A DNA stretch of 64,000 bases, taken from assembly GCA_964473485.1 (NCBI GenBank), contig CAYYPH010000019.1, positions 2,668-66,667 of the forward strand, given 5' to 3'. The stretch's first letter is position 1. Each line of letters begins with the position of its first letter. A program made the translations under genes and the position numbers. This DNA comes from an uncultured Prolixibacteraceae bacterium (GTDB lineage: Bacteria; Bacteroidota; Bacteroidia; Bacteroidales; FEN-979). This document shows, piece by piece, positions 6,478 through 30,513 of this stretch. Below the pieces are notes generated by a model, which saw only the letters and a program-made list of their open reading frames with translations, had not been told where the DNA came from and ran no database searches.

Positions 6478-6530
6478 GTAAAATACGACGAAATGCGTAT
6501 TGACCGGCCAGTTAGAGGGTAATACCTTTG
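6478..6530 (+). promoter_or_regulatory. Box A operator-promoter, copy 1 (upstream of beta-helix/HK1)
   Basis: GTAAAATACGACGAAATGCGTATTGAC contains the dyad AATACG-N8-CGTATT. It is followed after 18 nt by TACCTTTG (TAnnTTTG -7 box) at 6523, with the ATG at 6556. Confidence 0.55.
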
Positions 6531-6555
6531 GTACAGAAATTAAATCACCTGATCC

Positions 6556-9417
6556 ATGAAAACCATTCTGATGGTTGCCGTTATTGGCCTGTTGGCCGCA
6601 GCAACACAGGCTCAGATCATCCACATTCCCGATGATTATCCCACCATCCAGCAAGGGATCGATGCTACAAATAATGGGGATACCGTTCTTGTATCACCCG
6701 GAACCTATGTTGAAGGCATCTCTTTTAACGGGAAGAATATTACCGTTGCCTCTCTGGTCCTGACTACCCAGGATACCTCATACATTTCCAGGACCATCAT
6801 CGACGGCAACCAGTATGGCTTTGTTGTTGCATTCTGGCAGGAGGAAGATATTACGGCAATCCTTTGCGGATTCACCATTAAAAATGGAAATGGCGGGATT
6901 TATTGTGACCATTCCAGCCCTACCCTGTGCAACCTGATCATCAGGGAAAATTCGACTCCTGTGGGTGGTTGGGGACCTTCGCCGGGTGGTGCAGGTATAA
7001 GTTGCATCAATGCAAATCCAGTGATTAAAGATGTCATCATTACAAATAATACGTGTTCGGTTTTCGGAGGTGGGATGTCCTGCAGGCAAAACTCCTATCC
7101 TTTTCTGTCAAACATAACCATCAAGCATAACACATCTCATTCACAGGGGGGAGGGATCTTTTGCAGTGGATCCGCCCCTGTTTTTGATACCCTGAACCGT
7201 TGCAATATTTTTAATAATAGCGCATTGGAAGGGAATGACCTCTATACCGACACGTTGCTGGCTGTTACTGTAGATACCTTTAGCGTTGGGAATCCCACCG
7301 ACTTCCATGCTGCCCCTATTGCCGACTTTTCGTTCAAAATCCTGCACGGAAGGTCGGTTCAGGTAAATGCCGACCTCTATGTATCGCCCGGAGGGGATGA
7401 CAATAACAGCGGCCTTACTGCTGCAGATCCACTTAAGTCGGTTCAGTATGCCTTTTCAATCATCCGGGCCGATAGCCTGAACCGGAACACGGTCCGCCTG
7501 CTCGAAGGAATATATACTCCTTTTTCCTGTCCCGGTCTTTTTCCTCTGGACGTTCCGGATTATATTGATTTGAAAGGTGTCTCCAGAACAGCAGTCATCC
7601 TTGATGCCAAAGACGCTTCAAGGGTTCTCCAGGTAATGGACAATACATCCAATCATATTTCAGGCATGACCATTACCGGAGGATATATTTTGGGTTGCGG
7701 CGGGGGTGGGATCCTCTGCGATCAATCAAAACCCGTTTTCGAAGATTTGATTATAACCGGGAATACGGCCCAGGCAGGAGGCATCGGGATGAATATTTGC
7801 GGTATAGGTGGAGGAGGGATTCTTTGCCTTGACTCCGATCCTATTTTCAAGGATGTGATCGTTACCGGGAATTATTCTTTCATGGAAGTTGATGGATCCA
7901 CCGGTTTATTTGGAGGCCATGGAGGAGGATTGTATTTTAAAAATTCAACCCCCTTATTGCAAAATGTAACAGTAACTGCCAATGGAGCCTCATATCATGG
8001 CGGGGGCATCAGTTTCATGGGATCAGAACCACGGTTCGACTCCATCAATCGTTGTAACATATACGGCAACGTGGCATCAGGTCATCCTGGTCAGTTTGGC
8101 GGCAGCGACCTCTATGCCGATACCTTCATTGAACTTGTTGTAGATACTTTTACAGTAAGCGTTCCCAATGCGTTTCATGCACTCCCGCTAAGCAACTTCT
8201 CCTTCGACATTATCCATGGGTTACATCAGCAAATCAGCGCCAACCTCTATATTTCACCCTGGGGAGATAACCGGAACAGCGGATTGACACCGGGTGAACC
8301 CCTCAGGAACATCCAATGCGCGTTCTCTTTCATGCAATCCGACAGTCTGAATCCGCGTACGATCCATCTGCTTGAAGGCACTTACAGCAGGATGAACAGC
8401 GGGGAATTTTACCCGCTCAGGCTCCCCGGATATACCAGTATCGAAGGGATCTCTCAACAATCGGTCATCCTGGATGCCGACAGTACAAAATATGAGGCCA
8501 TTCAACTTATAAACAGTCCGGGTGTTCGTATTACAGGGATAACAATTAATGGTGGGTCGCATCATATCGGAAGCTCCACGGGTATAACCTCTTACAATGC
8601 AAATCCTTCCATCCGGGATGTCATTTTTTCAAACAATACCCTTGGAATAAACTGCTTATTTTCAGATCTGGCCCTTGAAAACGTGATCATTTCCAGCGAT
8701 GATGCTTCAAACGGGGGAAGTGGTATTTATTGTGGCTATTTTCCTTCCTCAGATAAAATCAGCCTGAAAAATGTTACAATGGTCAATGCAAGGCCTACCA
8801 GCGGTTATGCCATTTCCGGTGCGGGAGCAAATACCATGATCGTGAATTCCATTCTCAGGAATCACATTCCCTATGAAATCATTGGAGGCACTCCTGTTGT
8901 CAATTATTCGAATGTAGAGGGAGGGTGGCCGGGAGAAGGCAATATAGATGCCGACCCTCTTTTTGATACAACTGGCATCTATCCATTGGCATTAAGAAAC
9001 GGGTCTCCCTGCATCAATGCCGGCACGCCTGATACAACAGGTTATAATTTCCCGCTTACTGACCTTGCAGGAAATCCAAGAATATGGGGAGGAAGAATTG
9101 ATATGGGGGCGTATGAGTGGAATAATGTGGGGAGTGCAGAAATTCGATTTCCGAATTATGAATTACAAGTAAAGAATTTTCCGAACCCAACAAGTCAATC
9201 AACCTCTATCTCTTATAACCTCAAAGAATCAGGGAATGTGACAATCCGGGTGTTCGACAGCTACGGACAGTTCGTTGAAAAACCTTTGAGCGCTCATCAG
9301 GCAAAGGGCGAGCAGCAAGTGCCCTGGGATGCCGGGAACCTGCCGGCAGGGATATATTTCTATCGGATACAGGCCGGGAGGGAAGTGGGAGGAGGAAAGA
9401 TACTGTTAGTGAAATGA
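6556..9417 (+). CDS. Secreted right-handed beta-helix repeat protein with T9SS C-terminal sorting domain
   Basis: Signal peptide MKTILMVAVIGLLAAATQAQ and repeated N-x-G-G-G-I beta-helix turns. Has the DADPLF...GSPCINAG...GNPR...DMGAYE module and the tail FPNPTSQSTSISY...LPAGIYFYRIQ...KILLVK. Confidence 0.75.
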   Translation: MKTILMVAVIGLLAAATQAQIIHIPDDYPTIQQGIDATNNGDTVLVSPGTYVEGISFNGKNITVASLVLTTQDTSYISRTIIDGNQYGFVVAFWQEEDITAILCGFTIKNGNGGIYCDHSSPTLCNLIIRENSTPVGGWGPSPGGAGISCINANPVIKDVIITNNTCSVFGGGMSCRQNSYPFLSNITIKHNTSHSQGGGIFCSGSAPVFDTLNRCNIFNNSALEGNDLYTDTLLAVTVDTFSVGNPTDFHAAPIADFSFKILHGRSVQVNADLYVSPGGDDNNSGLTAADPLKSVQYAFSIIRADSLNRNTVRLLEGIYTPFSCPGLFPLDVPDYIDLKGVSRTAVILDAKDASRVLQVMDNTSNHISGMTITGGYILGCGGGGILCDQSKPVFEDLIITGNTAQAGGIGMNICGIGGGGILCLDSDPIFKDVIVTGNYSFMEVDGSTGLFGGHGGGLYFKNSTPLLQNVTVTANGASYHGGGISFMGSEPRFDSINRCNIYGNVASGHPGQFGGSDLYADTFIELVVDTFTVSVPNAFHALPLSNFSFDIIHGLHQQISANLYISPWGDNRNSGLTPGEPLRNIQCAFSFMQSDSLNPRTIHLLEGTYSRMNSGEFYPLRLPGYTSIEGISQQSVILDADSTKYEAIQLINSPGVRITGITINGGSHHIGSSTGITSYNANPSIRDVIFSNNTLGINCLFSDLALENVIISSDDASNGGSGIYCGYFPSSDKISLKNVTMVNARPTSGYAISGAGANTMIVNSILRNHIPYEIIGGTPVVNYSNVEGGWPGEGNIDADPLFDTTGIYPLALRNGSPCINAGTPDTTGYNFPLTDLAGNPRIWGGRIDMGAYEWNNVGSAEIRFPNYELQVKNFPNPTSQSTSISYNLKESGNVTIRVFDSYGQFVEKPLSAHQAKGEQQVPWDAGNLPAGIYFYRIQAGREVGGGKILLVK

Positions 9418-9504
9418 GTTCCCAGTTTCATCAAGAAATTTTCTGACAGAAGGGTGACCGCCTCTAAAATCGACCTATCTTTATATCGCTATTCCCTTCT
9501 TTTC

Positions 9505-11817
9505 ATGACCACTTTGAAGCAAGCCATCGCGAGGATCCCTTTTTGGGCTTACTTGGTTGTACTTGTATCAATGTTTGTGAACACCGTGTACTTTGTATTT
9601 ACATACGCGGCAATCGTTGTTTATTCAGAATCTCCCGTCACTCCGGTGTTTTCCTGGGCGGTGTACCTTACAACCATTCTGTTTGGTACCGGCAGTCTCT
9701 ATCTTCTATACAAAAAGCCTGGTGATCGCCCGGTCAGGATTTTCTTTTTCTACGTACAGTTTTTTGTAATTATGATCAATGCAGGAAACCTTTTTGTGCT
9801 GAATCCTTTGATCAATATTGTGAATATTGTCTTCCATACAACCTGTTTTATTGGTTCAGTTCTAATCAGTTTCCATCTCGTATTTCCGAAAACGGTAAAA
9901 TATTACAACACATTAAGGAGCGTTTCATGGATCATCTATGTATTTACCACAATAGTTGTTAGTTGTTATTCAGCAAGTTATATTTACTCTGTTTATAATG
10001 AATTAACGCCTGACTCCTTTTTTTTCGTTGCTGAACGAATCGCTTTATGGTGGCTCACATTAACTTATATAGGTGCCTTGGCAATTGCTGTTTACCAGTA
10101 TGCTACTTTGAAAGACACACTCTTAAAAAACCAGGTGTTCATTGTCTGTATAGGATCTCTTTTCGGATTAATCACACCAATGTGCCTGGCTTTGTTCTAT
10201 GATTTTATCCTTCCTTTAACTTTTAAAAATCCCAATCCAATTGTTATTTCCCAAGGTATTTGCAGTTTAATCACCATCTGCTGCATCCTCACCGCCATCT
10301 TCCGTTACCGCATCTGGGATATCGAGGTCGTCATCCGGAAAGCCTTGCTGTACCTGGGAGCCACCGCCATCATCATCTTGTCGTACCTCTTCCTGGTCTG
10401 GCTCATTGATCAGTTCACGGCCGGAGCCACCGATCTGATCCGCTTTGCCGCCCTGGGCATTTCCGTAATCCTCTTCCTCGTTCTCCGCGACCGCATCCAG
10501 CGGCTGATCGACCGGATCTTTCACCGCGAGACCTACGACTCTGCCACGGTAGTATCCGATTTTGAAGCAAAACTGGCGGGGATTTACAGGTTTGATGAGT
10601 TGAAACAGAAAATTGTCCAGAGTCTTGATGAGATCTTCCATTTTAAATCCTTTGTTTTTAACCTGAAGAAAAACAACCAGATCTATGAACCCGCTTATGC
10701 TTTAGGGATCGATGATACGGACATTCCAGCAGAATATGAGATCTCCGCCGAAATTGAAGACAGACTCAGGAAATCAAAGGTCTTTTCCCCTCAAGAGTTG
10801 AATGTGACGTCCCCTGTGCTTGAAACGATCAAAGGAGACCTCATTGTTCCGATGGTATCCGAAGGTCAACCGGAAGGGTTTTTTATCTGCGGACAGAAAA
10901 AGTCGGAGCGGATCTATTCCCGGCAGGACATCAACGTGCTCTCATTGCTTGCGAGAAGAGTGGTTGCCATGCTTCATACCGCCAGCCTTTACCAGAAAGA
11001 TCTTGACCGCCAACTGATGCTTGAACGTGAACGCGCCCGCATCGCCCAGGACATGCACGACGACATCGGCGCGGGACTGACAAAAATCGCCATGATCAGC
11101 GAAGCGCCTGTTCAAGTTCCCGGTCAGCAGTCACTTACTGCAAACTTACTCTCAGATCGCTTGAAGAAGATTGCAACATCTTCCCGCGACATGATCTCCC
11201 GCCTGAACGTGATCGTCTGGGCGCTGAATCCCCGGTATGACAATCTTGAAAGCCTGGTCAGCTATCTTCGGAGATATTTCGGGGAATACCTTGAAAACTT
11301 CGGAATTCAATTCAGCACCGGATTTCTGGAAGAGGTACCCGAACGTGCCATCACACCCGACACCCGGCGTAACATCTTCTATATCATTCAGGAGGCCATT
11401 CACAATGCGGTCAAGCACAGCGGCTGCACAGAGATCGGCCTTGACATTGCATTCTACTCCGGGTCGCCGCACAATTCCACGGGCTTTAAACTTCAATCCC
11501 CCCTTGAAACCAATGACTGCACTTCCCTGCCACGCCATAATACCAATGACCTCATGCCACCACTGCATCACACGACCGGTGACTCCCTCACACTACAACC
11601 TCCTCGCCCTGAAGGAGAGGGGAAGAAGGAAAAGAGGCGCTATACCTTAACCTTCATCATCATCGACAACGGTAAGGGATTTGACCAGGTCAAAACCGGT
11701 TCCGGCGGAAACGGTCTGCTGAACATGAAAAAGCGGGCGGAGGAACTGTCGGGGACTTGCGAAGTTCAAAGTTCACCGGGGAAAGGGACCAAAATTACAG
11801 TACGGGTAAACATTTAA
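9505..11817 (+). CDS. Sensor histidine kinase HK1: multi-pass membrane, GAF-like, HisKA_3, HATPase_c (no PDZ)
   Basis: The start is trimmed to MTTLKQAIARIPFWAYL by analogy with the paralog N-termini. H-box ERERARIAQDMHDDIGAGL, N-box EAIHNAVKHS, G-box DNGKGFD...GNGLLNMKKR. Has a long insertion between the N and G1 boxes. Confidence 0.85.
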   Translation: MTTLKQAIARIPFWAYLVVLVSMFVNTVYFVFTYAAIVVYSESPVTPVFSWAVYLTTILFGTGSLYLLYKKPGDRPVRIFFFYVQFFVIMINAGNLFVLNPLINIVNIVFHTTCFIGSVLISFHLVFPKTVKYYNTLRSVSWIIYVFTTIVVSCYSASYIYSVYNELTPDSFFFVAERIALWWLTLTYIGALAIAVYQYATLKDTLLKNQVFIVCIGSLFGLITPMCLALFYDFILPLTFKNPNPIVISQGICSLITICCILTAIFRYRIWDIEVVIRKALLYLGATAIIILSYLFLVWLIDQFTAGATDLIRFAALGISVILFLVLRDRIQRLIDRIFHRETYDSATVVSDFEAKLAGIYRFDELKQKIVQSLDEIFHFKSFVFNLKKNNQIYEPAYALGIDDTDIPAEYEISAEIEDRLRKSKVFSPQELNVTSPVLETIKGDLIVPMVSEGQPEGFFICGQKKSERIYSRQDINVLSLLARRVVAMLHTASLYQKDLDRQLMLERERARIAQDMHDDIGAGLTKIAMISEAPVQVPGQQSLTANLLSDRLKKIATSSRDMISRLNVIVWALNPRYDNLESLVSYLRRYFGEYLENFGIQFSTGFLEEVPERAITPDTRRNIFYIIQEAIHNAVKHSGCTEIGLDIAFYSGSPHNSTGFKLQSPLETNDCTSLPRHNTNDLMPPLHHTTGDSLTLQPPRPEGEGKKEKRRYTLTFIIIDNGKGFDQVKTGSGGNGLLNMKKRAEELSGTCEVQSSPGKGTKITVRVNI

Positions 11818-11904: not shown

Positions 11905-11957
11905 GTGAAATACGACGAAATGCGTATTGACGGAGACCTGCTTTCTTATTACTTTTG
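11905..11957 (+). promoter_or_regulatory. Box A operator-promoter, copy 2 (upstream of RR1)
   Basis: GTGAAATACGACGAAATGCGTATTGAC matches copy 1 at 26 of 27 nt. It is followed after 18 nt by TACTTTTG at 11950. The RR1 ATG is at 11962, so the mRNA is leaderless or uses the ATG at 11992. Confidence 0.55.
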
Positions 11958-11961
11958 AATC

Positions 11962-12603
11962 ATGCCAGGATCATCAGGTAAAATCAAAATCATGATCGTC
12001 GAAGACGACCGGGAGATGCGGGAAGGGCTGGAACTGATCGTCCGCTCAAATCCGGCCCTGGAATGCATTGGATCCTGTTCCTCGGGAGAGGAGGCGGTCG
12101 AAACCATTCCGGATCATGTACCCGACATTGTTCTGATGGACATTCACCTTCCCGGGCTCTCGGGAATTGATTGCGTAAAGCAGTTAAAACCACTCATGCC
12201 GTTCACACAGTTCATGATGTGCACGGTATACGAAGATAATGAAAACGTCTTTGATTCACTCTGCGCGGGAGCTACCGGCTACCTGTTGAAAAACAGCCCT
12301 CCGTCAAAAATAACGGAGGCCATCGTCGACCTCTACCAGGGCGGTTCTCCCATGTCTTCAGTCATCGCGCGGAAAGTGATCCAGACCTTTATTCCCGCCC
12401 CTGAAAAGAGCAGCGAAATTGAAAAACTGACCGTTCGGGAGCGGGAACTGCTCGACCTGCTTTCGAAAGGATATCGTTACAAAGAGATCGCCGACAGGCT
12501 TGGCATCAGCTTTGAGACCGTCCGCACACACATCCACAACATTTACGAGAAACTGCATGTACAGTCGAGGACCGAGGCGCTGAACAAGATCTATCCCAGA
12601 TAA
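11962..12603 (+). CDS. NarL/FixJ (LuxR-type HTH) response regulator RR1
   Basis: Receiver IMIVEDDREMREGL...[12 protein letters not shown] and HTH LTVRERELLDLLSKGYRYKEIADRLGISFETVRTHIHNIYEKL. The start could instead be the ATG at 11992 if the adjacent -7 box is the promoter. Confidence 0.9.
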   Translation: MPGSSGKIKIMIVEDDREMREGLELIVRSNPALECIGSCSSGEEAVETIPDHVPDIVLMDIHLPGLSGIDCVKQLKPLMPFTQFMMCTVYEDNENVFDSLCAGATGYLLKNSPPSKITEAIVDLYQGGSPMSSVIARKVIQTFIPAPEKSSEIEKLTVRERELLDLLSKGYRYKEIADRLGISFETVRTHIHNIYEKLHVQSRTEALNKIYPR

Positions 12604-12613: not shown

Positions 12614-12667
12614 CTACTGCCTACTGCAAACTGCCTACTGCAAACTACCAACTGCAAACTGCCAACT
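12614..12667. repeat. Heptamer array WACTGCM x ~7 (CTACTGCCTACTGCAAACTGCC...)
   Basis: Read directly. Lies between the RR1 stop and the HK2 start. Confidence 0.9.
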
Positions 12668-12706: not shown

Positions 12707-15079
12707 ATGGGCAACCTGAGGCATTCGCTCCGCCGGATTCCCTATTGGGCCTACCTGCTCGTGCTGGCAGTTATCGGCATAAACACCGCCTGGCTGATTT
12801 ACCGGGGCAGGATACCGCTAGGAGGAGCGACCCTGAAGATGGAACAGGGATATTACATCCACGATTTTGTAAATCCACGGGGTTCAGTATACGAAGCGGG
12901 AATACGCCCCGGAGACACACTTGTTTCGATGGATGCTGTTGCCATTGAAAAATGGCAATATAACCTGAAGACAGGAGATACCGTGATTGCAGGGATTCTA
13001 AGGAATGGCAAAGAAACTGCAATGCCCGTGATCATAGATTCCATCCACTCATATGCCCCCTGGTTTTTCTGGTCCGTCTACATCATTGTGATACTTGTCA
13101 CCATCGGGAGCCTCTGGTTGCTGTATAAAAAACCAAATGATAAATCGGCAGTGTTATTTTTTATCGTTATTCAAATGTTCATGATTGTGATAAATGCAAT
13201 CAGTTATCAGGATAATGCTCCTTTGGGAATGATTGCCGTGTTTGCGTTTCATTTTAGCAGTTGCTTTATAGGTACGGCGCTGATCCATTTTCACCTGCTT
13301 TTCCCAAAACCTGCAACGTTTTTCAACCAGGGTAAAAGATGGCTTATTTTATTCTATATACTGAGCTTCATACTACTGACCGCTTATTTTACGTCCTATT
13401 ACTTTCTTCACTATCCTGGGTTTATGACCGGAAAATACTATGGGCTATTTGACAGGATCGTTGTGTCGTGGATGACGCTGACTTTCTTATTGGCGTTAGT
13501 TGTTGCCGTATTTCAATTCCGGACAATAAAAGACACCCTTTCGCGTAACCAGTTACGTCTCGTAATAACAGGTTCAGCGTTCGGCTTTATAGGCCCCGCG
13601 GCTTTTTCACTGTTTTATAAAAGTGTCGGCGATATTTCAGCGAAGTATCCCCTGATGGTGCCTGTTTCCCAGGGAACTGCGACCATGATCCTGATCTGCT
13701 GCATCCTGGTCGCCATCTTCCGTTACCGGATCTGGGATATTGAAATCTTTATCCGCAGGGCAATGCTTTACCTGGGAGCGACAATGGTCATCATGTTGTC
13801 GTATTTGTTGCTTCTTTACCTTGTCGATCTGTTTACGCTCCGTGAATCAAGTCTCACCCGATTTGTGATGCTGGCGCTTTCGGTCATCATTTTCCTGGCG
13901 GTCAGGGATTGGCTCCAGCGTATGTTAGAAAGAGTGTTTTTCAGGGAAAAGTATGATCCGACCACCGTTGTTTCCCGATTTGAAGAGAAGCTTGCCGGCA
14001 TATACAGGGCCGATGAGCTTAAATCAGGCATCGTAATGAGAATGGATGAGATATTTCATTTTTCGCACATCGCATTTCTCTTGAAAAAAAATGAACTTGT
14101 TTATGAAACGGTATTTTCGGCAGGACTTGATCATCAGAGAGTGAAAGGCGAATTTATGGTCACCCGGGAGCTGGAGAACAGGCTTCAGAAGCAGAAAGTA
14201 TTTACTCCGGGCGAAATGGAACAAATGCCTGTTTTCATTGAAGAAACCCATGCTGAACTGGTGGTTCCGGTGCTGAAAGATGAACACCCTTTCGGGTTTT
14301 TTCTTTGCGGACCAAAGAAATCGGAGAAACCCTATTCCATGCAGGACATCCGGCTCCTTTCGCTGATCGCCAGGCGGGTCAACGCATTGTTCCATACGGC
14401 GGCACTCTATCAGAAAGACCTCGACCGTCAGCTCATGCTCGAACGCGAACGAGCAAGGATTTCGCAGGACATGCACGACGATATCGGGGCCAGCCTTACC
14501 CGGATCTCTATGATGAGCGATCTGGTCAATAACAGGACCGATGTCGGGGATGGTGCCAGGCAATGGTTGGCGAAGATCAGCAACGCATCACGGGGATTGA
14601 TGGAAGAGATGAACCAGATCATCTGGGCACTGAATCCAAGGAACGATAACCTCGAAGGACTCGTAACATACATTCGTCGTTTCGCATTCGAATACCTGGA
14701 ACCTACAACGGTGGACTGTGTTTTCGATCTCCCGGCAGAGATGCCGCACCTGGCCCTGAGCGTGGAGGTACGCAGGAATGTTTACCTTGTATCCCGCGAA
14801 GCCGTTCACAACGTTGTGAAGCATTCAGGAGCCACCAAGGTGGTGATTACGTTCACCCCCCAAACCCCTCTCTGTGAAGGAGAAAGATGGGGGGAGGAAA
14901 GGTCGTTTAAAATCTCCATTCACGACAACGGGAAAGGATTTGATCCCGGGAAGTTCGAATTTCAGGGGAATGGGCTGATCAATATGAAGAAGAGAATGCA
15001 TGAAATAGGTGGAGCATTGGTGATTCACTCCATCATTGGCAGGGGAACGGAAATCGAACTGGAAGTGCCTGTGAGATAA
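12707..15079 (+). CDS. Sensor histidine kinase HK2: TM1, PDZ, ~9 TM, GAF-like, HisKA_3, HATPase_c
   Basis: PDZ-like GIRPGDTLVSMDAVAIEKW...GDTVIAGILRNGKE lies between TM1 and TM2. H-box ERERARISQDMHDDIGASL, EAVHNVVKHS, DNGKGFD...GNGLINMKKR. Confidence 0.85.
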   Translation: MGNLRHSLRRIPYWAYLLVLAVIGINTAWLIYRGRIPLGGATLKMEQGYYIHDFVNPRGSVYEAGIRPGDTLVSMDAVAIEKWQYNLKTGDTVIAGILRNGKETAMPVIIDSIHSYAPWFFWSVYIIVILVTIGSLWLLYKKPNDKSAVLFFIVIQMFMIVINAISYQDNAPLGMIAVFAFHFSSCFIGTALIHFHLLFPKPATFFNQGKRWLILFYILSFILLTAYFTSYYFLHYPGFMTGKYYGLFDRIVVSWMTLTFLLALVVAVFQFRTIKDTLSRNQLRLVITGSAFGFIGPAAFSLFYKSVGDISAKYPLMVPVSQGTATMILICCILVAIFRYRIWDIEIFIRRAMLYLGATMVIMLSYLLLLYLVDLFTLRESSLTRFVMLALSVIIFLAVRDWLQRMLERVFFREKYDPTTVVSRFEEKLAGIYRADELKSGIVMRMDEIFHFSHIAFLLKKNELVYETVFSAGLDHQRVKGEFMVTRELENRLQKQKVFTPGEMEQMPVFIEETHAELVVPVLKDEHPFGFFLCGPKKSEKPYSMQDIRLLSLIARRVNALFHTAALYQKDLDRQLMLERERARISQDMHDDIGASLTRISMMSDLVNNRTDVGDGARQWLAKISNASRGLMEEMNQIIWALNPRNDNLEGLVTYIRRFAFEYLEPTTVDCVFDLPAEMPHLALSVEVRRNVYLVSREAVHNVVKHSGATKVVITFTPQTPLCEGERWGEERSFKISIHDNGKGFDPGKFEFQGNGLINMKKRMHEIGGALVIHSIIGRGTEIELEVPVR

Positions 15080-23634: not shown

Positions 23635-25785
23635 ATGAGATCAATCTTGTATATTATCCTTTTCTTTCCGTTACTGGCTGGTAAAGTTGAAGGCCAGAAT
23701 CCGGTGATTCAGGCTTGCCTGGCAGAGGTGAATGCCGACAGTATCAAGGCAACCATGCAGCGCCTGCAGGATTACGGAACACGTTACTTCATGGCAGGAA
23801 ACCGTAAGGAGATCGCCACCTGGATCATGAACAGGTTCATGGGTTACGGATACACGGCGGCGGCGCTGGATTCGGTACAGATGAAAAATTCCGATACTAC
23901 GCTCTGGCAATACAACGTGGTTTGTACTATTCCCGGCATTAGCGCGCCCGGTGAGATCACTGTCGTCGGAGGTCATTACGACTCTTTCAATACCATCGAC
24001 CCGATGGCCAGCGCCCCGGGAGCGGATGACAATGCTTCGGCCGTTGCGGCTACACTTGAAATGGCAAGGGTGATAAAGGTGACTGGTTACCAGCCCGTAT
24101 CCACCATCCGGTTCGTTCTCTTTGCAGCGGAAGAGTCCGGATTTGTAGGATCCTGGCATCAGGCCGGAAGGTCTGCCGATATGGGTGAAGACATACGGTT
24201 GATGTACAACATGGATATGATCGCCTTCGACACCGGTAACGTCAATACTGTTTTCCTGTTCAATTACAGGGGAGCTGAAAGTGCTTATAATCTGGCTTCC
24301 CGGGCTATTCAGCAATATACCGGACTCGATGTTCTTCCCGGACCCGCTGACCACCAGAACAGATCCGATTCCTATGTTTACCGGGAGAAAGGATACCAGG
24401 TAACCTGGGCGAGAGAAAAAGTATTCAACGTCCATTATCATTCATCTGAGGATATCGTGGCCAACTGCAACCTGTCCTATTGCGCGGAGGTGACCCGCGG
24501 AGTTCTTGCCGGTGTCCTGGAAATGCAGTACCGGCCCTTTCCACAGGGCATGGCTGCTGTCTCGTCTGAAAATGCCGTATCGGTTCACTGGAAACCCTGC
24601 CGCAACGGCAACCTGAAAGGCTTCAACATCTACCGGTCGGAAAACGACAGCAACGCTTTTCAGAGACTAAACACAACGATGGTCAGGGATACGTTTTTTG
24701 TGGATCATTCCGTTCATCTGTCAAGAGATTATTATTACTATGTAACGCTTGTTAACGATTCCATGCAGGAAAGCGTCCCTTCTCCAACGGTCAATGGGGC
24801 GCGGTTCAGATTCACCGACACACTTCTCGTGGTGGCCTGCCTGAAAGGTGAACAAAACACGCCCGATTCAATCCGGAACTTCTATGATTCCGTTCTCGAC
24901 AGCATCCCTCACCGGTGGTTCGAAATGAACAAAAGTTCGCACCTCACCCTGGCCACAATGTCACATTACCGGAATATGCTGTGGGTGATCAATTCCCTGG
25001 AATACGATAAGATTACCGTTCAGGTTGCACACGACCTTGAAGTCTTCTTCGCCAACCACGGAAACATGATGTTCGCTGGATTTTCATTTGCCCGGTTCAT
25101 GTTGGGCAACATTGGATTTCCGTCAAAGATCCCTGAAACTTCAATCCCTTTCCGATATTTCAGGGCCGACTCGGTCGATAAAAGGATCTACAGCTATATG
25201 TACCGGACTTACCCGGATGATGAGGACTATGATACCTTGTATGTGGACACCCTGAAGAGTTTCAAACCGGGTTTCCCCGGGGAACTTTACAATATTGAGG
25301 TCTGTACCCCTGCCTTCGGAGGAAATCCAATTTACCGGTTCGATTCGAAGTACGATCCAGGAACCACCCAGGGCGCCCAGCAGGGAAAGATTGTGGGAAT
25401 GGAATATATGGGCAATGACTTCCGTACGTTACTCCTTAGCTTCCCACTCTTTTACCTGGATACTTCCGATGCAAGGAGGCTGATGACCTACGTAGTAAGG
25501 AGCAGGTTTGCAAATCAAACGGGGGAACCAGAGGCCGGACGCCCGGCATGGTCATCCCTTCAAATCTATCCGAATCCCTCCCCTGATTTGATTACCATTG
25601 CCGGCAATGAAGTCAGTATCCGCGGAGAGTTGTCGGTGATCCATATGAGCGGCCGGTTGGCGCTCAGGCAGCCCATCGGCCCTGGCAGATCCACCCTGAA
25701 CATCGGTTCATTGCCGGCAGGTATCTATATCGTGAAGATCGTTTATGAAAATGGTTGTTTCGCAGGCAAATTCATCAAAAATTAG
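23635..25785 (+). CDS. M28-family metallopeptidase with extra domains and T9SS tail
   Basis: The start is trimmed to MRSILYIILFFPLLAGKVEGQ. Has GGHYDS, GADDNASAVAATLEMARV and FAAEESGFVGSW, then an FN3-like segment (VHWKPCRNGNLKGFNIYRS). Tail YPNPSPDLITIAG...LPAGIYIVKI...GKFIKN. Confidence 0.8.
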   Translation: MRSILYIILFFPLLAGKVEGQNPVIQACLAEVNADSIKATMQRLQDYGTRYFMAGNRKEIATWIMNRFMGYGYTAAALDSVQMKNSDTTLWQYNVVCTIPGISAPGEITVVGGHYDSFNTIDPMASAPGADDNASAVAATLEMARVIKVTGYQPVSTIRFVLFAAEESGFVGSWHQAGRSADMGEDIRLMYNMDMIAFDTGNVNTVFLFNYRGAESAYNLASRAIQQYTGLDVLPGPADHQNRSDSYVYREKGYQVTWAREKVFNVHYHSSEDIVANCNLSYCAEVTRGVLAGVLEMQYRPFPQGMAAVSSENAVSVHWKPCRNGNLKGFNIYRSENDSNAFQRLNTTMVRDTFFVDHSVHLSRDYYYYVTLVNDSMQESVPSPTVNGARFRFTDTLLVVACLKGEQNTPDSIRNFYDSVLDSIPHRWFEMNKSSHLTLATMSHYRNMLWVINSLEYDKITVQVAHDLEVFFANHGNMMFAGFSFARFMLGNIGFPSKIPETSIPFRYFRADSVDKRIYSYMYRTYPDDEDYDTLYVDTLKSFKPGFPGELYNIEVCTPAFGGNPIYRFDSKYDPGTTQGAQQGKIVGMEYMGNDFRTLLLSFPLFYLDTSDARRLMTYVVRSRFANQTGEPEAGRPAWSSLQIYPNPSPDLITIAGNEVSIRGELSVIHMSGRLALRQPIGPGRSTLNIGSLPAGIYIVKIVYENGCFAGKFIKN

Positions 25786-25803: not shown

Positions 25804-25846
25804 GGCGAGGGGCAATTCAACAATTTGCCTCTCGCCACCTTTTTTC
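25804..25846 (+). terminator. Rho-independent terminator after the M28 peptidase gene
   Basis: GGCGAGGGGCAA / TTGCCTCTCGCC forms a 12-bp stem (one G-U) with an 8-nt loop, followed by ACCTTTTTTC. Confidence 0.7.
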
Positions 25847-25876: not shown

Positions 25877-28276
25877 ATGTCGGTAATGTTCAGTTCTCTC
25901 CGCCTGATACCTTTCCGGGCATATCTGCTGGTATTCCTTGTCATTCTGGTCAATTCCATTTACTTCTGTTACAAAGGCAAATATCCGGACGACGGAATGA
26001 TCCTTCGATCAGAAAATGGCCGGTGGATCGCTGATCAATTCAGGCATGGCAGTCCTGCGTATAACGCGGGTGTCAGATCCGGTGACATCATACGTTCCAT
26101 TGGTGGAGGGTCGGTTGAAGCCTGGCTCAACAATAATTCAGGGCTGAAGGCCGGCGAAACAGTCATTTACCGGATTGAAAGAAACGGCCGTCCTCTCCAG
26201 ATAAGGGTTACAATGACTTCCTATTTTTCAGAGGCGGCCGGTTTTTTCTGGCTGATCCTTATTCTACCCACCATGTTCAGCATTGCATCGCTTTACCTGC
26301 TGTGGAAAAAACCGAAAGAAAAGGCCGCCTGGCTGTTTTTCATCTTTCTACAGTTGTTCGCGGTAAACACAAACGCATTATCCCTGCATTTTCCGGAATT
26401 TTTATCCATCCTGGCTTGCAATGTCTTTTTATTGTCCGGGACATTGCTTGGCCCTGTCCTGATCCATTTCCACCTGGTTTTCCCCAAACCTGCCAGCCTC
26501 CTCAGGCGCTTTACATGGCTCCCGCTCGTTTTCTACCTCGCGGGTATCCTGATTTTCATTCCCTATTCCATCATTCAATACCATTGGGCAATTTCTGATC
26601 TGCGCATCGGCACCATGTACGGTGATATGGACCGGATTGGTCTTACCTGGATGGCGCTGGCCTATACGATTGCTTTGCTTACAGCCATCTATCAGTTATT
26701 GACCAGCAGGGATACCTTGTCGCGGAATCAGCAACGAATGGTCATTATCGGTTCATTTTTTGGGTTTTTCACCCCGGTAGGATATGCCTTGTTCTATCAT
26801 TCGGTCAACCAACTGAACAATTATATCCTTTTCATCATGGTTCCCCATGGAACCGGGAGTCTGATCATGATCTGCTGCATCCTGGTGGCCATCTTTCGTT
26901 TCCACATCTGGGATATGGAGTTGATCATCCGCAAGGCCCTGCTCTACCTTGTTGCAACGGCATTCATCATCCTTTCTTATCTGCTGCTGATCTGGTTAGT
27001 GGATCTGATCGTCCTGAAGGAGTCGGATCTCAGCCGTTTTCTTGTTCTGGGCATTTCGGTGATCCTTTTCCTCGTACTGCGCGACCGGCTGCAGCGGTTT
27101 ACCGACCTGCTTTTTCACCGTGAAAGCTACGATTCAGCCACCGTCGTTTCCGGATTTGAAACCAGTCTCGCAGGGATATACCGCTTTGATGAACTGAAAG
27201 AAAAGATCGCACAAAGCATCGACGCGATCTTTCATTTCAAATCCTTTGCCTTTAATCTGAAGAAGAAAGGGCTGATCTATGACCCGGTATTTGTCCTCGG
27301 CGCCGGCAGTTCCGTCGAGGGGCAGGAATATGGGATAGACCGGGAGTTTGAAGACAGACTTCGGAAATCGAAGGTCTTTTCCCCGAAAGAAATAACCAAC
27401 AAACCTCAAATATTTGAAAAAATCAACGGCGAACTGGTCATTCCCATGGTGTCCGGCGGGCAACCGAACGGTTTCTTCATATGCGGGCAGAAGAGGTCGG
27501 AAAGGATCTACTCGAGACAGGACATCCAGTTGCTGCATCTGCTTGCACAGCGGGTGATTGCACTGCTGCATACGGCCGGTCTTTTTCAAAAAGACCTGGA
27601 CCGTCAGCTCATGCTTGAAAGGGAAAGGGCGAGGATCTCGCACGACATGCACGATGACGTAGGAGCCAGTCTTACCCGTATCTCCATCCTAAGCGAACTC
27701 GCAAAAAACAAGGCAGAAACAGACAAGGAGACCAGGCAATGGCTTGAACAGATCTCCTCCACGTCGCGCAGCGTCACCGAGGAGATGAGCCAGATCATCT
27801 GGGCGCTGAACCCGAAGAATGACACACTGGAAGGCCTGATCGCCTACATCCGGCGTTTCGTCGGCGAATACCTCGAACCGACCTCCGTTTCCTGCCGGTT
27901 CAACCTGCCTGATTGCCTGCCGGACCTGCCGCTGACCGTTGAAGTTCGCCGGAATATTTACCTGGTCGTCAGGGAGGCATTGCACAATGTGGTCAAGCAT
28001 TCAGAGGCGAGTGAGGTTGTCATAGGCCTCACCTCCGTTGGAGATTCTTTGACCTCACCCCCCAGCCCCCTCTCCTTCAAGGAGAGGGGGAGTAAGGGGG
28101 AGAAGTCATTTACTATCTCCATCTCCGACAACGGCAAAGGGTTCGATCCCTCCGCCCTGGAATTCCCAGGCAACGGGCTGGTCAACATGAAAAAGAGGAT
28201 GGAAGAAACCGGCGGGAGGCTTGACTTGAAGAGTGTACCAGGTGAAGGAACAATGGTAAAACTTGAGATTCCGTGA
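25877..28276 (+). CDS. Sensor histidine kinase HK4 (PDZ, multi-TM, GAF-like, HisKA_3, HATPase_c)
   Basis: PDZ-like GVRSGDIIRSIGGGSVEAW...GETVIYRIERNGRP. H-box ERERARISHDMHDDVGASL, EALHNVVKHS, DNGKGFD...GNGLVNMKKR. Confidence 0.85.
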   Translation: MSVMFSSLRLIPFRAYLLVFLVILVNSIYFCYKGKYPDDGMILRSENGRWIADQFRHGSPAYNAGVRSGDIIRSIGGGSVEAWLNNNSGLKAGETVIYRIERNGRPLQIRVTMTSYFSEAAGFFWLILILPTMFSIASLYLLWKKPKEKAAWLFFIFLQLFAVNTNALSLHFPEFLSILACNVFLLSGTLLGPVLIHFHLVFPKPASLLRRFTWLPLVFYLAGILIFIPYSIIQYHWAISDLRIGTMYGDMDRIGLTWMALAYTIALLTAIYQLLTSRDTLSRNQQRMVIIGSFFGFFTPVGYALFYHSVNQLNNYILFIMVPHGTGSLIMICCILVAIFRFHIWDMELIIRKALLYLVATAFIILSYLLLIWLVDLIVLKESDLSRFLVLGISVILFLVLRDRLQRFTDLLFHRESYDSATVVSGFETSLAGIYRFDELKEKIAQSIDAIFHFKSFAFNLKKKGLIYDPVFVLGAGSSVEGQEYGIDREFEDRLRKSKVFSPKEITNKPQIFEKINGELVIPMVSGGQPNGFFICGQKRSERIYSRQDIQLLHLLAQRVIALLHTAGLFQKDLDRQLMLERERARISHDMHDDVGASLTRISILSELAKNKAETDKETRQWLEQISSTSRSVTEEMSQIIWALNPKNDTLEGLIAYIRRFVGEYLEPTSVSCRFNLPDCLPDLPLTVEVRRNIYLVVREALHNVVKHSEASEVVIGLTSVGDSLTSPPSPLSFKERGSKGEKSFTISISDNGKGFDPSALEFPGNGLVNMKKRMEETGGRLDLKSVPGEGTMVKLEIP
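28054..28100 (+). repeat. In-frame G/C-rich palindromic element inside the HK4 ATPase domain
   Basis: A perfect 9-bp stem CCCCTCTCC-ttcaa-GGAGAGGGG (28067..28089) followed by GAGTAAG; encodes SPPSPLSFKERGSKGE. Confidence 0.75.
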
Positions 28277-28303: not shown

Positions 28304-28353
28304 AAATACTACTTTTTGGTGATACCTTTTCTCTTGCGATCATTGTAATTTAG
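28304..28353 (+). promoter_or_regulatory. Box B operator-promoter, copy 3 (upstream of RR3)
   Basis: AAATACTACTTTTTGGTGATACC, then TAATTTAG at 28346 (39 nt; an imperfect -7 box). ATG at 28371. Confidence 0.45.
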
Positions 28354-28370: not shown

Positions 28371-29024
28371 ATGAAATACACGGGAAATGAATATACAGAA
28401 CCTATCCGGATTGCCCTGGTAGAAGATGATAAAACCGTCAGGGAAGGATTGCAGATGCTCCTCAATGGCTCCCCCGGATTCACCTGCGTGGCTGCATACA
28501 ACAGCGGGGAAGATGCCCTTGCAGGGATTCCTGATATGCTGCCGGAAGTGACGCTTATGGACATCAACCTTCCCGGCATCAACGGTATCGAATGTATACT
28601 TAAGCTCAAGGAACAGCAATTACCCATTCTCTTCATCATGCTGACGGTTTTCGAAGACGCCGACGCCATCTTCCGGTCGCTTTCAGCAGGTGCATGCGGA
28701 TATTTACTCAAACATACCCCACCCGCAAAACTGCTGGAAGCCATCCAGGATGTCTACCGGGGCGGTTCTCCCATGTCGGGGGAGATCGCACGAAAGGTGG
28801 TTCAGTCATTTCAGCAGGTACCCGCAAAAAACCATGACCAGGCCAACCTGACGAAACGGGAAGAGGAGATCCTCAACCTCCTGTCGCAAGGATATTTTTA
28901 CAAAGAGATCGCCCATTCTCTTTCCATCAGCGTCGAAACCGTCCGCACCCACATTCGCAACATCTACGAAAAGCTACAGGTCAGGACCCGGACGGAGGCA
29001 ATTCTGAAGTACTTGGGAAAGTAG
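28371..29024 (+). CDS. NarL/FixJ (LuxR-type HTH) response regulator RR3
   Basis: IALVEDDKTVREGL...TLMDINLPGING; [46 protein letters not shown]. By eye about 70% identical to RR2. Confidence 0.9.
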   Translation: MKYTGNEYTEPIRIALVEDDKTVREGLQMLLNGSPGFTCVAAYNSGEDALAGIPDMLPEVTLMDINLPGINGIECILKLKEQQLPILFIMLTVFEDADAIFRSLSAGACGYLLKHTPPAKLLEAIQDVYRGGSPMSGEIARKVVQSFQQVPAKNHDQANLTKREEEILNLLSQGYFYKEIAHSLSISVETVRTHIRNIYEKLQVRTRTEAILKYLGK

Positions 29025-29064
29025 GCAGTAGGCAGTTTCAAGTTGGCAGTTGCCAGTTGGCAGT
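29021..29064. repeat. Heptamer array GTAGGCAG/AGTTGGCAG (reverse complement of the 12614 unit family)
   Basis: Read directly. The RR3 stop TAG is inside the first unit (AAGTAGGCAGTAGGCAG). Confidence 0.9.
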
Positions 29065-29096: not shown

Positions 29097-30449
29097 ATGG
29101 CCATGAAAACAAAATGTTCATTATTTGCGATTTTCCTTTTTGCCACCATTTTTACCATGGGGCAATGGACCACCACCTATTTTTCGCAGGCAGTCATTCG
29201 AACGGGTGGTGTGAAACTCGGCAACAAAGCTTGTTTCGCGGGGGGCTCGTCGGCCAACGCGGGAAACTGGTTTGATACCGACAATATCGAGATCTACGAC
29301 ATGGCAACCGGGACCTGGGAGATCGACCATCTGACCCAGGCACGAGCCTATGCCGTCGGGGTGACCTGCGGCGACAAGGCTTTTTTCGCCGGGGGGTTGA
29401 TGAGCTATCCTTTTCCTTCATCAAGAGTGGATATCATTACCACTGCAGGGATATGGGATTATTACGACCTCTCCATCCCCAGGTTTTCCCTTGCTGCGGT
29501 GGCCAACGACACCCTGGCATTGTTTGCAGGCGGTGTGGATATCAGCCTGAACCAGGTTTATGATGTGGTCGACATGTACCATGCGAACACAAATACCTGG
29601 ACGCTTTCAAACCTCTCGGTACCGCGGTGCGCAATGGGATTTGCGGCGGTCGGCGGCCGGGCCTTCTTTGCCGGGGGCATGAATGTCGACAACAGCATGG
29701 TTTACAACAGGGTCGACATCTACAATTTTTCCGACGGAACCTGGGACACGGCTTCCCTCTCGCAGGCAAGGGGCCATATCGGGACCACTGTGGTCGGCCA
29801 GAAGGTGATCTTTGCCGGGGGCAGCCTGGCAAACAGCGTGGTGAGCGACCGGGTCGACATCTTTGACCTGGGCACAGGCCAATGGAGCACTACGACCATG
29901 CCCGCGCCCAAGGCATTTTCCATCCATCAATCGGTTACCTTCGGCGATAAAGCCTGGTTCGTTGCAGGATCCGTCTTCAACAACGGCTGGGATACCGATT
30001 CGGATACCATCGACATCTTTGACCCGGCCGACAACACCTGGTCGGTTTTGATCATGCCGAGCCGGCTCAACGACCATACGGTGATTGTGATGGACACCTC
30101 GGTGCTGATCGGGGGCGGCTGGACATTCACAACCTACCCCTGGGGAAATCCACAGGACGAGATGTATATCTACAGTGATCCCTCCGTTGGCACCGGCCGC
30201 AACCATCCAAATAGCAAAGATATGGTGCTGTATCCCAATCCTGCCAGGGGAACGATTACGATCGAAACACGGAGGGTTCCGGCAGGAACAAGTCTAATCA
30301 TCTCCGGCATTCAGGGTCGCCCCCATATGGTTGTACCCATCACCCAGGGAAGAGCGACGGCCGACATCCGGGAGTTGCCGGCAGGCATCTATATTGTGCA
30401 GCTGACAACCGCAAACTCTTCATTGGTCGCAAAGTTTGTCAAGGAGTGA
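29097..30449 (+). CDS. Kelch-repeat (six-blade) protein with T9SS tail
   Basis: The start is trimmed to MAMKTKCSLFAIFLFATIFTMGQW. Six units of the form FFAGG...V(D)IY(D)...G(T)W. Tail YPNPARGTITIET...LPAGIYIVQL...AKFVKE. Confidence 0.75.
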   Translation: MAMKTKCSLFAIFLFATIFTMGQWTTTYFSQAVIRTGGVKLGNKACFAGGSSANAGNWFDTDNIEIYDMATGTWEIDHLTQARAYAVGVTCGDKAFFAGGLMSYPFPSSRVDIITTAGIWDYYDLSIPRFSLAAVANDTLALFAGGVDISLNQVYDVVDMYHANTNTWTLSNLSVPRCAMGFAAVGGRAFFAGGMNVDNSMVYNRVDIYNFSDGTWDTASLSQARGHIGTTVVGQKVIFAGGSLANSVVSDRVDIFDLGTGQWSTTTMPAPKAFSIHQSVTFGDKAWFVAGSVFNNGWDTDSDTIDIFDPADNTWSVLIMPSRLNDHTVIVMDTSVLIGGGWTFTTYPWGNPQDEMYIYSDPSVGTGRNHPNSKDMVLYPNPARGTITIETRRVPAGTSLIISGIQGRPHMVVPITQGRATADIRELPAGIYIVQLTTANSSLVAKFVKE

Positions 30450-30463
30450 CCGGCCATACCCAG

Positions 30464-30513
30464 AAATACTACTAATTGGTGATTGATTCCCCCTCGTCAC
30501 AAAAGTAACTTTG
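30464..30513 (+). promoter_or_regulatory. Box B operator-promoter, copy 4 (upstream of Ycf48-like copy 2)
   Basis: AAATACTACTAATTGGTGATTGA, then TAACTTTG at 30506, 39 nt from TACTAC. Confidence 0.5.

Follow-up and report, generated by a model that had tools for sequence, protein, structure and literature searches.

We analysed a stretch of 64,000 nucleotides (nt), called the window below, from contig CAYYPH010000019.1 of an uncultured Prolixibacteraceae bacterium (assembly GCA_964473485.1). Its G+C content is 50.7%, and the C-terminal sorting domain for secretion by the type IX system (T9SS) is encoded in it many times. Between 6.4 and 34.5 kb, where all genes lie on the + strand, genes for four histidine kinases (HK1–HK4) and three response regulators (RR1–RR3) are interspersed with genes for secreted proteins (cargo). 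Eight copies of a bipartite box, all intergenic and on the + strand, were found among them, each at an almost constant distance from a -7 box of the form TAnnTTTG, which is typical of Bacteroidota. The order from the 5' end is box A1, the beta-helix cargo and HK1; box A2 and RR1; HK2; box C1 and RR2; box C2 and the BNR cargo. HK3 follows, then box B1 with the Fib_succ_major gene, box B2 with the genes of a cargo protein of 440 amino acids (aa) and an M28 peptidase, HK4, box B3 with RR3 and the Kelch cargo, box B4 with the BNR/sortilin-like cargo and, at the end, the S8 peptidase cargo. The window can be read as three to four tandem modules of the type kinase, box, regulator, box, secreted protein (Table 1). 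All target products carry a signal peptide and most of them a T9SS sorting domain. An earlier note on this DNA had assigned each class to one regulator gene (A to RR1, C to RR2, B to RR3) and its neighbouring cargo, and this agrees with our own assignment: class A precedes the beta-helix cargo (with HK1) and RR1, class C RR2 and the BNR cargo, and class B RR3 (with the Kelch cargo) and three further secreted-protein transcription units.

Table 1. Boxes, -7 elements and genes of the array (window positions; distances are from the first nucleotide of the box; TM, transmembrane)
Feature	Position	Strand	Sequence or product	Context
Box A1	6484–6504	+	TACGACGAAATGCGTAT+TGAC	before beta-helix cargo gene and HK1
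-7 box A1	6523–6530	+	TACCTTTG	39 nt
Cargo A	6556–9417	+	953-aa DUF1565/beta-helix protein, signal peptide, T9SS C-terminal sorting domain	
HK1	9454–11817	+	multi-TM HisKA_3 histidine kinase	without PDZ segment
Box A2	11911–11931	+	TACGACGAAATGCGTAT+TGAC	predicted autoregulatory site of RR1
-7 box A2	11950–11957	+	TACTTTTG	39 nt
RR1	11962–12603	+	REC + GerE (NarL/FixJ family)	recognition helix ETVRTHIHNIYEKL
HK2	12707–15079	+	TM1, periplasmic PDZ-like segment, ~8 TM helices, HisKA_3 kinase	
Box C1	15144–15163	+	TAACACGAAAAGGGGAT+ACC	predicted autoregulatory site of RR2
-7 box C1	15183–15190	+	TACTTTAG	39 nt
RR2	15208–15861	+	REC + GerE	helix type THLRH
Box C2	16037–16057	+	TAACACCAAATGGGGAT+TGAC	predicted target site before BNR cargo gene
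-7 box C2	16077–16084	+	TACATTTG	40 nt
Cargo C	16178–18238	+	686-aa BNR/YCF48-like beta-propeller, T9SS sorting domain	
HK3	18361–20769	+	PDZ/multi-TM HisKA_3 kinase	no box upstream
Box B1	20800–20819	+	TACTACTTTTTGGTGAT+ACC	30 nt past HK3 stop, before Fib_succ_major gene
-7 box B1	20839–20846	+	TAACTTTG	39 nt
B1 target	20861–22198	+	445-aa secreted protein, Fib_succ_major domain	
Box B2	22212–22232	+	TACTACTTTTTGGTGAT+TGAA	before 440-aa cargo and M28 peptidase genes
-7 box B2	22252–22259	+	TACCTTTG	40 nt
B2 targets	22280–25785	+	440-aa T9SS cargo and M28 peptidase T9SS cargo	co-directional, 11-nt gap
HK4	25877–28276	+	PDZ/multi-TM HisKA_3 kinase	no box
Box B3	28307–28326	+	TACTACTTTTTGGTGAT+ACC	30 nt past HK4 stop, predicted autoregulatory site of RR3
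-7 box B3	28346–28353	+	TAATTTAG	39 nt
RR3	28371–29024	+	REC + GerE	recognition helix ETVRTHIRNIYEKL (family-typical)
Kelch cargo	29097–30449	+	Kelch-repeat T9SS cargo	likely start is the ATG of MAMKTK
Box B4	30467–30487	+	TACTACTAATTGGTGAT+TGAT	before BNR/sortilin-like cargo gene
-7 box B4	30506–30513	+	TAACTTTG	39 nt
BNR/sortilin-like cargo	30595–32736	+	713-aa T9SS cargo	
S8 peptidase cargo	32868–34541		S8 peptidase	after BNR/sortilin-like gene, without box

The coordinates and sequences of the eight sites were found as quoted in the earlier note, and so were the distances that separate the initial T of the hexamer from that of the -7 box (A, 39 and 39 nt; C, 39 and 40 nt; B, 39, 40, 39 and 39 nt). 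Boxes A1 and A2 are identical across 21 nt. Within a class the 17-nt boxes agree at 15–17 of 17 positions, the 18-nt spacer to the -7 element at 2–8 of 18 and the upstream flank at 4–15 of 27; between classes, the boxes agree at 9–12 of 17 positions. The -7 box matches TAnnTTTG exactly at six of the eight promoters and reads TAnnTTAG at C1 and B3. Where a -33 element (TTTG, about 20 nt 5' of the -7 box) would be expected, A1, A2, C2, B2 and B4 (5 of 8) have ATTG, with its G 20–21 nt before the T of the -7 box, and C1, B1 and B3 have ACC. Both extensions of the box, TGAC and ACC, had been noticed before, and they can now be tied to promoter type: target promoters and the promoter of RR1 have the TTG of GATTG(A), and GATACC replaces it at autoregulatory promoters of the RR2/RR3 type, which are without a -33 TTG in the window and in its relatives alike.

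The skeleton proposed for the boxes, TAMNAC-N5-GNKNAT, matched 11 times in the window against 1.37 expected, and none of 100 shuffles reached 11. The sites that the test counts are, however, those from which the pattern was built, which makes it circular; the three further matches, all in coding DNA, are probably due to chance. It was therefore replaced by an offset test anchored on the hexamer and by comparison across genomes. Random genome-wide occurrence, which the earlier note had considered as evidence against its proposal, was not seen in the sequence covered here: the cluster contains all eight sites, the remaining 40 kb of the window contain none, and among the relatives 83 of the 104 composite sites outside the window lie at most 150 nt from one end of a regulator gene.

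For the comparison we fetched 104 loci, namely 80 genomic loci with relatives of RR3, seven contigs with orthologs of RR1 and 17 metagenome stretches with the exact class A box; the family statistics refer to 1.31 Mb of related loci plus the window. RR3 and RR1 have thousands of homologs each, mostly in uncultured Bacteroidales, and about 15,000 homologs were seen in the searches with them. The module was found across Bacteroidota and Ignavibacteriota, and in its canonical form it consists of a HisKA_3 membrane kinase, a box, the regulator, a second box and one or more secreted-protein genes, the order of kinase and then regulator being kept in the relatives. A box was present 5' of 67 of the 92 family regulator genes, 37–41 nt from a -7 box, and directly 3' of 45 of the 92 a second box preceded the secreted-protein gene. 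The consensus of this downstream box, aaWTTACTACTwTTTGGTkATTG, is the class B sequence of the window.

In the closest relatives (L001–L008, 74–80% identity) the DNA 5' of the regulator gene reads TACTAC-N5-GG(G/T)GAT, followed by about 18 non-conserved nt and GTAAyTTAGC, in which the TAnnTTAG variant of the -7 box is kept. Distant members, from Flavobacterium, other Bacteroidota, Ignavibacteriota and one metagenome-assembled genome (MAG) of Acidobacteriota, have the palindrome TAC(T/C)AC-N4-GT(A/G)GTA, for example TACTACTAAAGTAGTA in L023, L036 and L054. Judged from these sequences, the box descends from TACYAC-N4-GTRGTA, a palindrome of 16 bp. The 6-4-6 pattern was matched 74 times in the 1.31 Mb against 5.6 times after shuffling, and the 6-6-6 pattern of the window 104 times against 25.6; about 85–90% of the matches fell in the roughly 10% of the DNA that is intergenic. 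When the left hexamer was used as the sole anchor (577 intergenic occurrences), a -7 box was found at offsets 38, 39 and 40 in 30, 53 and 16 cases, respectively (99 in all), over a background of about 2–3 per offset. It is clear that the rigid spacing from box to -7 element is real and holds across phyla. Information per position was found only in the box (about -4 to +20 from the hexamer start) and in the -7 element, and was near zero between them. With relatives in more than 80 genomes that carry the same element at the same distance, the proposed divergence from one ancestral operator is supported.

The targets of the module in Bacteroidales are T9SS-tailed Kelch, BNR, beta-helix or leucine-rich repeat (LRR) proteins. 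In loci of the Flavobacterium type (L020, L027, L028, L032, L033, L035, L037, L039, L040, L043, L045, L049 and others) we noticed instead a conserved lipoprotein of about 246 aa, with an N-terminus like MKTFKK...SCSKDD and a YxCxTC motif, encoded about 100 nt after the target box, and in other Bacteroidota a conserved secreted protein of about 560 aa. Pfam has no family for either of them.

Each class of the window recurs beside orthologous regulators, 5' of the regulator gene and of the adjacent secreted-protein gene, in agreement with the three autoregulated mini-regulons suggested earlier. Class A was found again in L081–L084 and 14 metagenome contigs, boxes identical at 20 of 20 positions included, class B in L001–L008, L085 and L087, and class C in L009 and L083. 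The box before the RR2 ortholog of L009 is identical to C1 at 20 of 20 positions and that in L083 at 19 of 20, and both loci have target boxes TAACAC...GGGGATTGC, equivalent to C2. Locus L083 also contains TACGACGAAATGCGTATTGA, identical to the class A box of the window, beside an RR1 ortholog of 80% identity, its second module being of class C. In the metagenome collection the exact class A 20-mer occurs at 18 sites. Fourteen of them are in module context: they adjoin RR1-type genes, stand 5' of an RR1 ortholog or of Kelch/BNR/T9SS cargo and have a -7 box at 38–40 nt. Approximately four sites are out of context; given the size of the collection, a 20-mer would be expected to turn up by chance about that often.

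We then compared the recognition helices of the 92 family regulators with the first heptamer of their boxes; the counts are uncorrected for phylogeny. For regulators with the helix TVRTHIRN, the heptamer was TACTACT or TACCACT in 43 of 49 boxes of the autoregulatory kind and in 37 of 40 at targets. The RR1-type helix TVRTHIHN went together with TACGACG or TACAACA in 5/5 autoregulatory boxes and with TACAACA in the one target box, and TVRTHIHH with TACCACA in 4/4 autoregulatory boxes and TACAACA in the one target box (L087). For T(V/I)RSHIRN the heptamer was TAACATT in all four autoregulatory boxes, and for the RR2-type helix TVRTH(L/I)RH it was TAACACG in 3/3 autoregulatory boxes, with TAACAC in 3/3 target boxes. 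The pairs in the window are class A, TACGACG...CGTAT, with THIHN (RR1); class C, TAACAC...GGGGAT, with THLRH (RR2); and class B, TACTACT...GGTGAT, with THIRN (RR3). From this co-variation the adjacent regulator is likely the reader of the box.

The earlier note had called the three helices nearly identical and placed the class-specific bases in the flanks of a shared core. The helix letters are as it quoted them, and RR1–RR3 differ there by one or two residues; they are not functionally identical, since the R/H and N/H differences mark subfamilies (THIH(N/H) in 116 of 120 RR1-type and THIRN in 117 of 120 RR3-type proteins) and co-vary with box class. The flanks did not hold up: the class-specific bases lie inside the half-sites, at heptamer positions 3, 4 and 7. 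Wherever a locus has at least two family regulators, the co-resident proteins are always of different classes, by helix in the window, L009, L083, L085, L087, L067 and L074 and by orthology only in L094.

All three regulators matched Response_reg (E-values 1e-22 to 1e-23) and GerE (1e-16 to 1e-17) in Pfam; the genes of the array are old paralogs, with 51–69% aa identity among the regulators and 48–56% among the kinases, and in spite of this age the box and the -7 element alone are kept within a class. NarL was the best structural and sequence relative, with VraR the second-best structural one. The segment LMDINLPG of RR3 aligns with LLDLNMPG of NarL (1a04), and we take its Asp to correspond to D59 of NarL, the phosphorylation site. 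RR1–RR3 are not NarL or NarP, MctR or MadR. They did not reach the NCBIfam equivalogs for NarL (NF007935; cut-off 250 bits, scores 128, 127 and 141) or NarP (NF007708; cut-off 343, scores 114–127) and were far below the cut-offs of the MctR and MadR models, and no NCBIfam equivalog was found for the regulators or the kinases.

The likeness to NarL extends in part to the operator. NarL and NarP of E. coli have the same architecture, a REC domain with a LuxR/GerE helix-turn-helix, and a partner kinase of the HisKA_3 type. The 7-2-7 sites of NarL are 16-bp palindromes, e.g. TACCCCTAAAGGGGTA (PMC4549865), and both this site and TACTACTAAAGTAGTA of the present family are inverted repeats that start with TAC and end with GTA; 29 family sites score at least 10 of 12 as TACTAC-N4-GTAGTA, and class A of the window keeps an outer symmetry TACG...CGTA in the 6-4-6 register. 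NarL contacts bases through Lys188, Val189 and Lys192 of helix alpha-9 (PMC10853779). These residues align with R, T/S and R/H here, so that two of the three class-variable helix positions are NarL base-contact positions (V189 and K192).

The position in the promoter is also comparable. The sigma-A -7 box, with the consensus TAnnTTTG, lies at -12 to -5 in the transcription start site map of Flavobacterium psychrophilum (PMC9723704), which would put the 17-nt boxes of the window at about -51 to -35, as the earlier note had estimated, the TTG of the TTGAC extension at -35 to -33, the place of the Bacteroidota -33 element, and the centre of the family palindrome at about -42.5 to -43.5. With positions so inferred, the site has a geometry of the class II type (activator centred at about -41.5 to -44.5), at a fixed 38–40 nt from the -7 box and abutting or overlapping the -33 element. 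NarL activates yeaR in a non-canonical class II mode, through the C-terminal domain of the RNA polymerase alpha subunit, from a single site centred at -43.5, just 5' of the -35 element (PMC10853779), and napF and ogt (-44.5) likewise have 7-2-7 operators at class II-like positions.

There are differences as well. The consensus heptamer of NarL is TACYYMT. TACCCCT and TAACCAA are examples of it (PMC4549865, PMC10853779). The left heptamers TACTACT, TACGACG and TAACACG/C do not match the consensus. The promoters here are of the Bacteroidota sigma-A type (-33/-7) and not -35/-10, the sensors are PDZ/multi-TM kinases and not NarX-like nitrate sensors, and secreted proteins encoded alongside take the place of respiratory operons as targets. 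Window boxes B and C are asymmetric, with a spacer apparently 2 bp longer; they read best as TACTAC-N6-G(T/G)GATA, in which the proximal half-site is shifted by 2 bp. A single symmetric reading for the three classes was tried and rejected, as class A is symmetric about 7.5 (ATACG-N8-CGTAT) and class B, if at all, about 8.5 (TACTAC-N6-GTGATA). The distance from the proximal half-site to the -7 box is 21–23 nt in both layouts, which suggests that this half-site is the part fixed relative to RNA polymerase.

Taken together, the eight boxes are very probably the DNA-binding sites of the three neighbouring NarL-type response regulators. The presence, spacing and conservation of the boxes, their location beside regulator genes and the co-variation of helix and box are observed; from them we infer binding, activation, orthogonality of the classes and the pairing of kinases with regulators. 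In the proposed mechanism the phosphorylated regulator would bind as a dimer to a site of about 16–18 bp, in which the promoter-distal half-site (TACTAC-like) is strong and the proximal one varies more. The dimer, at about -51 to -35 and abutting or overlapping the -33 element, would recruit RNA polymerase to the sigma-A -7 box at a fixed distance, in a class II activation like that of NarL. The regulator gene would thereby activate itself and the neighbouring T9SS cargo genes would be induced, and regulators and operators would have co-diverged into the classes A, C and B with the circuits kept separate. We regard this explanation as a whole, operators of RR1–RR3 that activate their own genes and the adjacent cargo with co-diverged classes, as probable, and would give positive autoregulation with induction of adjacent cargo genes, taken by itself, hardly less credit. 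Three features favour activation: the phasing is fixed, the autoregulatory promoters of the RR2/RR3 type have a weak -33 element or none, and the site matches activating NarL sites.

Several observations weigh against this explanation. Under the criteria used no box was found in 20 of the 92 family members, mostly from Verrucomicrobiota and other distant groups. All positions relative to +1 are extrapolated from the -7 consensus of another genus. The B and C boxes of the window are not palindromic in the 7-2-7 register of NarL, and the displacement of their right half by 2 bp makes the binding geometry uncertain; every class has A at heptamer position 5, where NarL has a pyrimidine. The co-variation counts are not phylogenetically independent, and each variant class may be one clade. 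In L019 a THIRN-type regulator has a TAACAT box, and THIHH regulators have TACCAC 5' of their own gene but TACAAC at the target (L087), so the code between helix and box is not strictly one-to-one. Finally, repression would be just as conceivable from a site overlapping the -33 element.

If the adjacent regulators did bind the boxes as repressors, the -33 element would be occluded and a signal-dependent release would de-repress regulator and cargo. We consider this unlikely. The box does overlap the position of the -33 TTG, and target promoters, whose -33 TTG is reasonable and whose -7 box is good, might not need an activator to fire; repression through 7-2-7 sites is also known for NarL at some promoters, frdA among them (PMC4549865). 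However, box and -7 element keep their distance within 1 nt in different phyla, as is expected for contact with RNA polymerase and needless for simple occlusion, and at autoregulatory promoters of the RR2/RR3 type GATACC stands where the TTG would be, as in activator-dependent promoters. The position also fits the activating sites of NarL at yeaR, napF and ogt (PMC4549865, PMC10853779), whereas the repressing frdA site is at -4/+6.

It is about as improbable, perhaps slightly more so, that the classes are not insulated, all three regulators binding the eight boxes through a core TA..AC / G...AT with the class-specific bases drifting neutrally. Helices that differ at one or two residues, the 9–12 of 17 positions shared by boxes of different class and the THIHH regulators with both TACCAC and TACAAC boxes would agree with this. 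Class-specific bases are, however, kept where the spacers have been randomised, at 20 of 20 positions for class A (L083 and the 14 metagenome contigs) and for class C (L009); the helix variants are fixed within subfamilies, at positions with which NarL contacts bases, and co-resident regulators differ in class in every multi-regulator locus (in L094 by orthology only). The idea that the boxes are passive relics of segmental duplication, or sites of an unrelated factor such as an alternative sigma factor, with no link to the regulators, we regard as highly improbable and as already contradicted by the comparative data. Boxes B1 and B3 do not count as independent: each stands exactly 30 nt past the stop of HK3 or HK4, whose last 300 nt are 86% identical, and this pair at least is related by duplication or gene conversion. 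Between stop and box the 30 nt have diverged to roughly half identity, with the box positions kept at 20 of 20. Recent duplication as the source of box identity was nevertheless rejected, as spacers and flanks are at random-level identity where boxes are identical; the element is moreover in the same place in more than 80 genomes of several phyla and co-varies with the recognition helix of the regulator. A reading of box and -7 element as the -35/-10 promoter of a sigma factor was rejected too, 39 nt being too wide.

A further possibility, which we put forward only tentatively, is that the tandem modules are mutually insulated regulator–operator pairs made by duplication, in which single helix substitutions re-specify heptamer positions. 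The helix changes would be R to H (the equivalent of K192), N to H (the next residue) and T to S (the equivalent of V189), and the corresponding operator changes Y to R at position 4, T to R at position 7 and C to A at position 3.

Two details of the boxes may be coincidence or may mark a second binding site of lower strength. In promoter B2 the right half of the box, TTGGTGATACC, occurs once more at 22245–22255, overlapping the -7 box, and GATACCTTT in boxes C1 and B3 looks like a -7 element. A listing of repeated 12-mers in the window was too noisy, though it showed the similarity of the HK3 and HK4 3' ends and a second copy of GGTGATACC in B2.

The kinases HK1–HK4 (787–802 aa) have HisKA_3 and HATPase_c domains and about nine hydrophobic segments each. 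In HK2–HK4 the first hydrophobic segment is followed by a short periplasmic PDZ-like segment (in the N-terminal ~40–115 aa), which is missing in HK1. The PDZ assignment is based on weak matches of HK4 to PDZ_6/PDZ_2 and to DegP/RseP/Prc (Pfam, NCBIfam) and on precomputed PDZ matches in orthologous kinases, one of them strong. Speculatively, such periplasmic sensors could monitor the C-termini of secreted or mis-sorted proteins. HK1 and HK2 weakly resemble PrsK, the PEP-CTERM system kinase, in its TM region. The genes of HK2–HK4 have no bipartite box, only TAnnTTTA elements of their own (TAtcTTTA for HK2), so that sensor levels would be constitutive. HK3 and HK4 are mosaics, 80–82% identical in their dimerization and histidine-phosphotransfer (DHp) and catalytic parts and 47% in the sensor part, and the similarity extends as far as boxes B1 and B3, which are placed identically. 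This pattern suggests gene conversion or a younger partial duplication, with a regulator gene after HK3 lost or replaced. Probably both kinases signal to RR3; the identity pattern suggests two sensors into this regulator, and this would explain why four kinases stand beside three regulators.

With only 36 nt between cargo A and HK1, the kinase is probably co-transcribed from A1, and the Kelch gene probably with RR3, because neither a box nor a -7 element follows RR3. The ATG of RR1 is 12 nt from the first T of the A2 -7 box (11950 to 11962), at the predicted transcription start, and its mRNA is probably leaderless; the public gene call (P0121, 203 aa) starts at the next ATG, 11992. The same distance of 12–13 nt to the start codon is found in 28 of 56 family regulator genes, and about half of the family regulator mRNAs appear to be leaderless. 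A strong terminator-like hairpin at 25804–25845 (GGCGAGGGGCAA...TTGCCTCTCGCC, then T6), between the M28 peptidase gene and HK4, sets the B2 transcription unit apart from HK4; it is absent from the + strand list of the consensus terminator scan. The motif ACCTTTTTTCATAC occurs again 5' of HK2, at 12686. The scan for intrinsic terminators (25 terminator-like structures in the window, 20.6 expected) was uninformative, and so was the sigma-70 scan for promoters (34 in the window, 27.9 expected), whose model is wrong for Bacteroidota.

A radical SAM gene without a box upstream (34624–35511) follows the S8 peptidase gene, the last T9SS cargo gene, and at the other end the array adjoins an ATPase gene with AAA_14 and DUF4143 (5144–6304, - strand). 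Genes of the AAA_14 + DUF4143 type also lie between the modules of L085, and small AbiEii/DUF6922 and DUF7718 gene pairs in L083–L085, which hints that the arrays sit in variable, possibly mobile or defence-rich regions. Short tandem arrays of 4–12 copies, mostly with a period of 7 and some of 4 or 8, were seen in many intergenic regions (971–1055, 12616–12667, 15964–16032, 29020–29064, 35507–35744, 54889–55031, 56795–56921, 59569–59638, 60268–60416 and 61095–61160). Their units differ from array to array (ACTGCCA, TGCCTAT, AGTTGGC, CGTGACG, AATTGAA, TCAATTG, GGTGAACA and others), and they usually lie just past stop codons or 5' of promoters and are not part of the boxes. Comparable arrays are present in related MAG loci, e.g. 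5' of the RR1 ortholog in L009.

The predicted circuit is of a well-known kind, a NarL-type class II site in an autoregulated two-component module, and is no new principle. LiaRS and VraSR are positively autoregulated NarL-family two-component modules for neighbouring envelope or secreted-protein genes. They share with the modules described here the compact local circuit, with an operator at the regulator's own promoter and at one or a few adjacent genes, and a HisKA_3-type kinase, but they have another operator sequence and belong to another phylum. Here, in contrast, the kinase gene usually lies 5' of the regulator's operator and beyond its reach, leaderless mRNAs are apparently made from about half of the regulator genes, and the target type varies by genome (Kelch, BNR, beta-helix, LRR or lipoprotein). 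PorXY-SigP is likewise a Bacteroidota two-component system linked to T9SS-secreted proteins; according to the literature, PorX is a REC-PglZ protein that acts via an extracytoplasmic function (ECF) sigma factor on the T9SS machinery genes, whereas RR1–RR3 are predicted REC-GerE DNA binders beside individual cargo genes, and no homology or shared operator is implied. In the literature searched, whose scope is no proof of novelty, we found no description of this operator or of NarL-type/PDZ-kinase regulators of T9SS cargo, and both the regulator family and the operator appear to be undescribed.

Little is known about the regulation of individual type IX secretion cargo genes, and the sole two-component input described, PorXY-SigP, acts on the machinery. 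The module reported here is compact and very abundant; its regulators have thousands of homologs, and the loci that we examined number more than 100. With a predicted operator, promoter geometry and targets, its regulons can be read off the sequences of uncultured Bacteroidales, Flavobacteria and Ignavibacteria. Its practical value lies in such a readable regulon of an uncharacterised module and in a three-way case of regulator–operator co-divergence. Three co-resident classes with matching changes in helix and operator are a natural experiment on cross-talk of NarL-family paralogs at the DNA level and bear on which helix residue reads which base. If the modules are indeed insulated pairs, they would provide a readable recognition code for LuxR-type helix-turn-helix domains and would represent an undescribed, very widespread control of individual T9SS cargo genes in bacteria of the Fibrobacteres–Chlorobi–Bacteroidetes (FCB) group.

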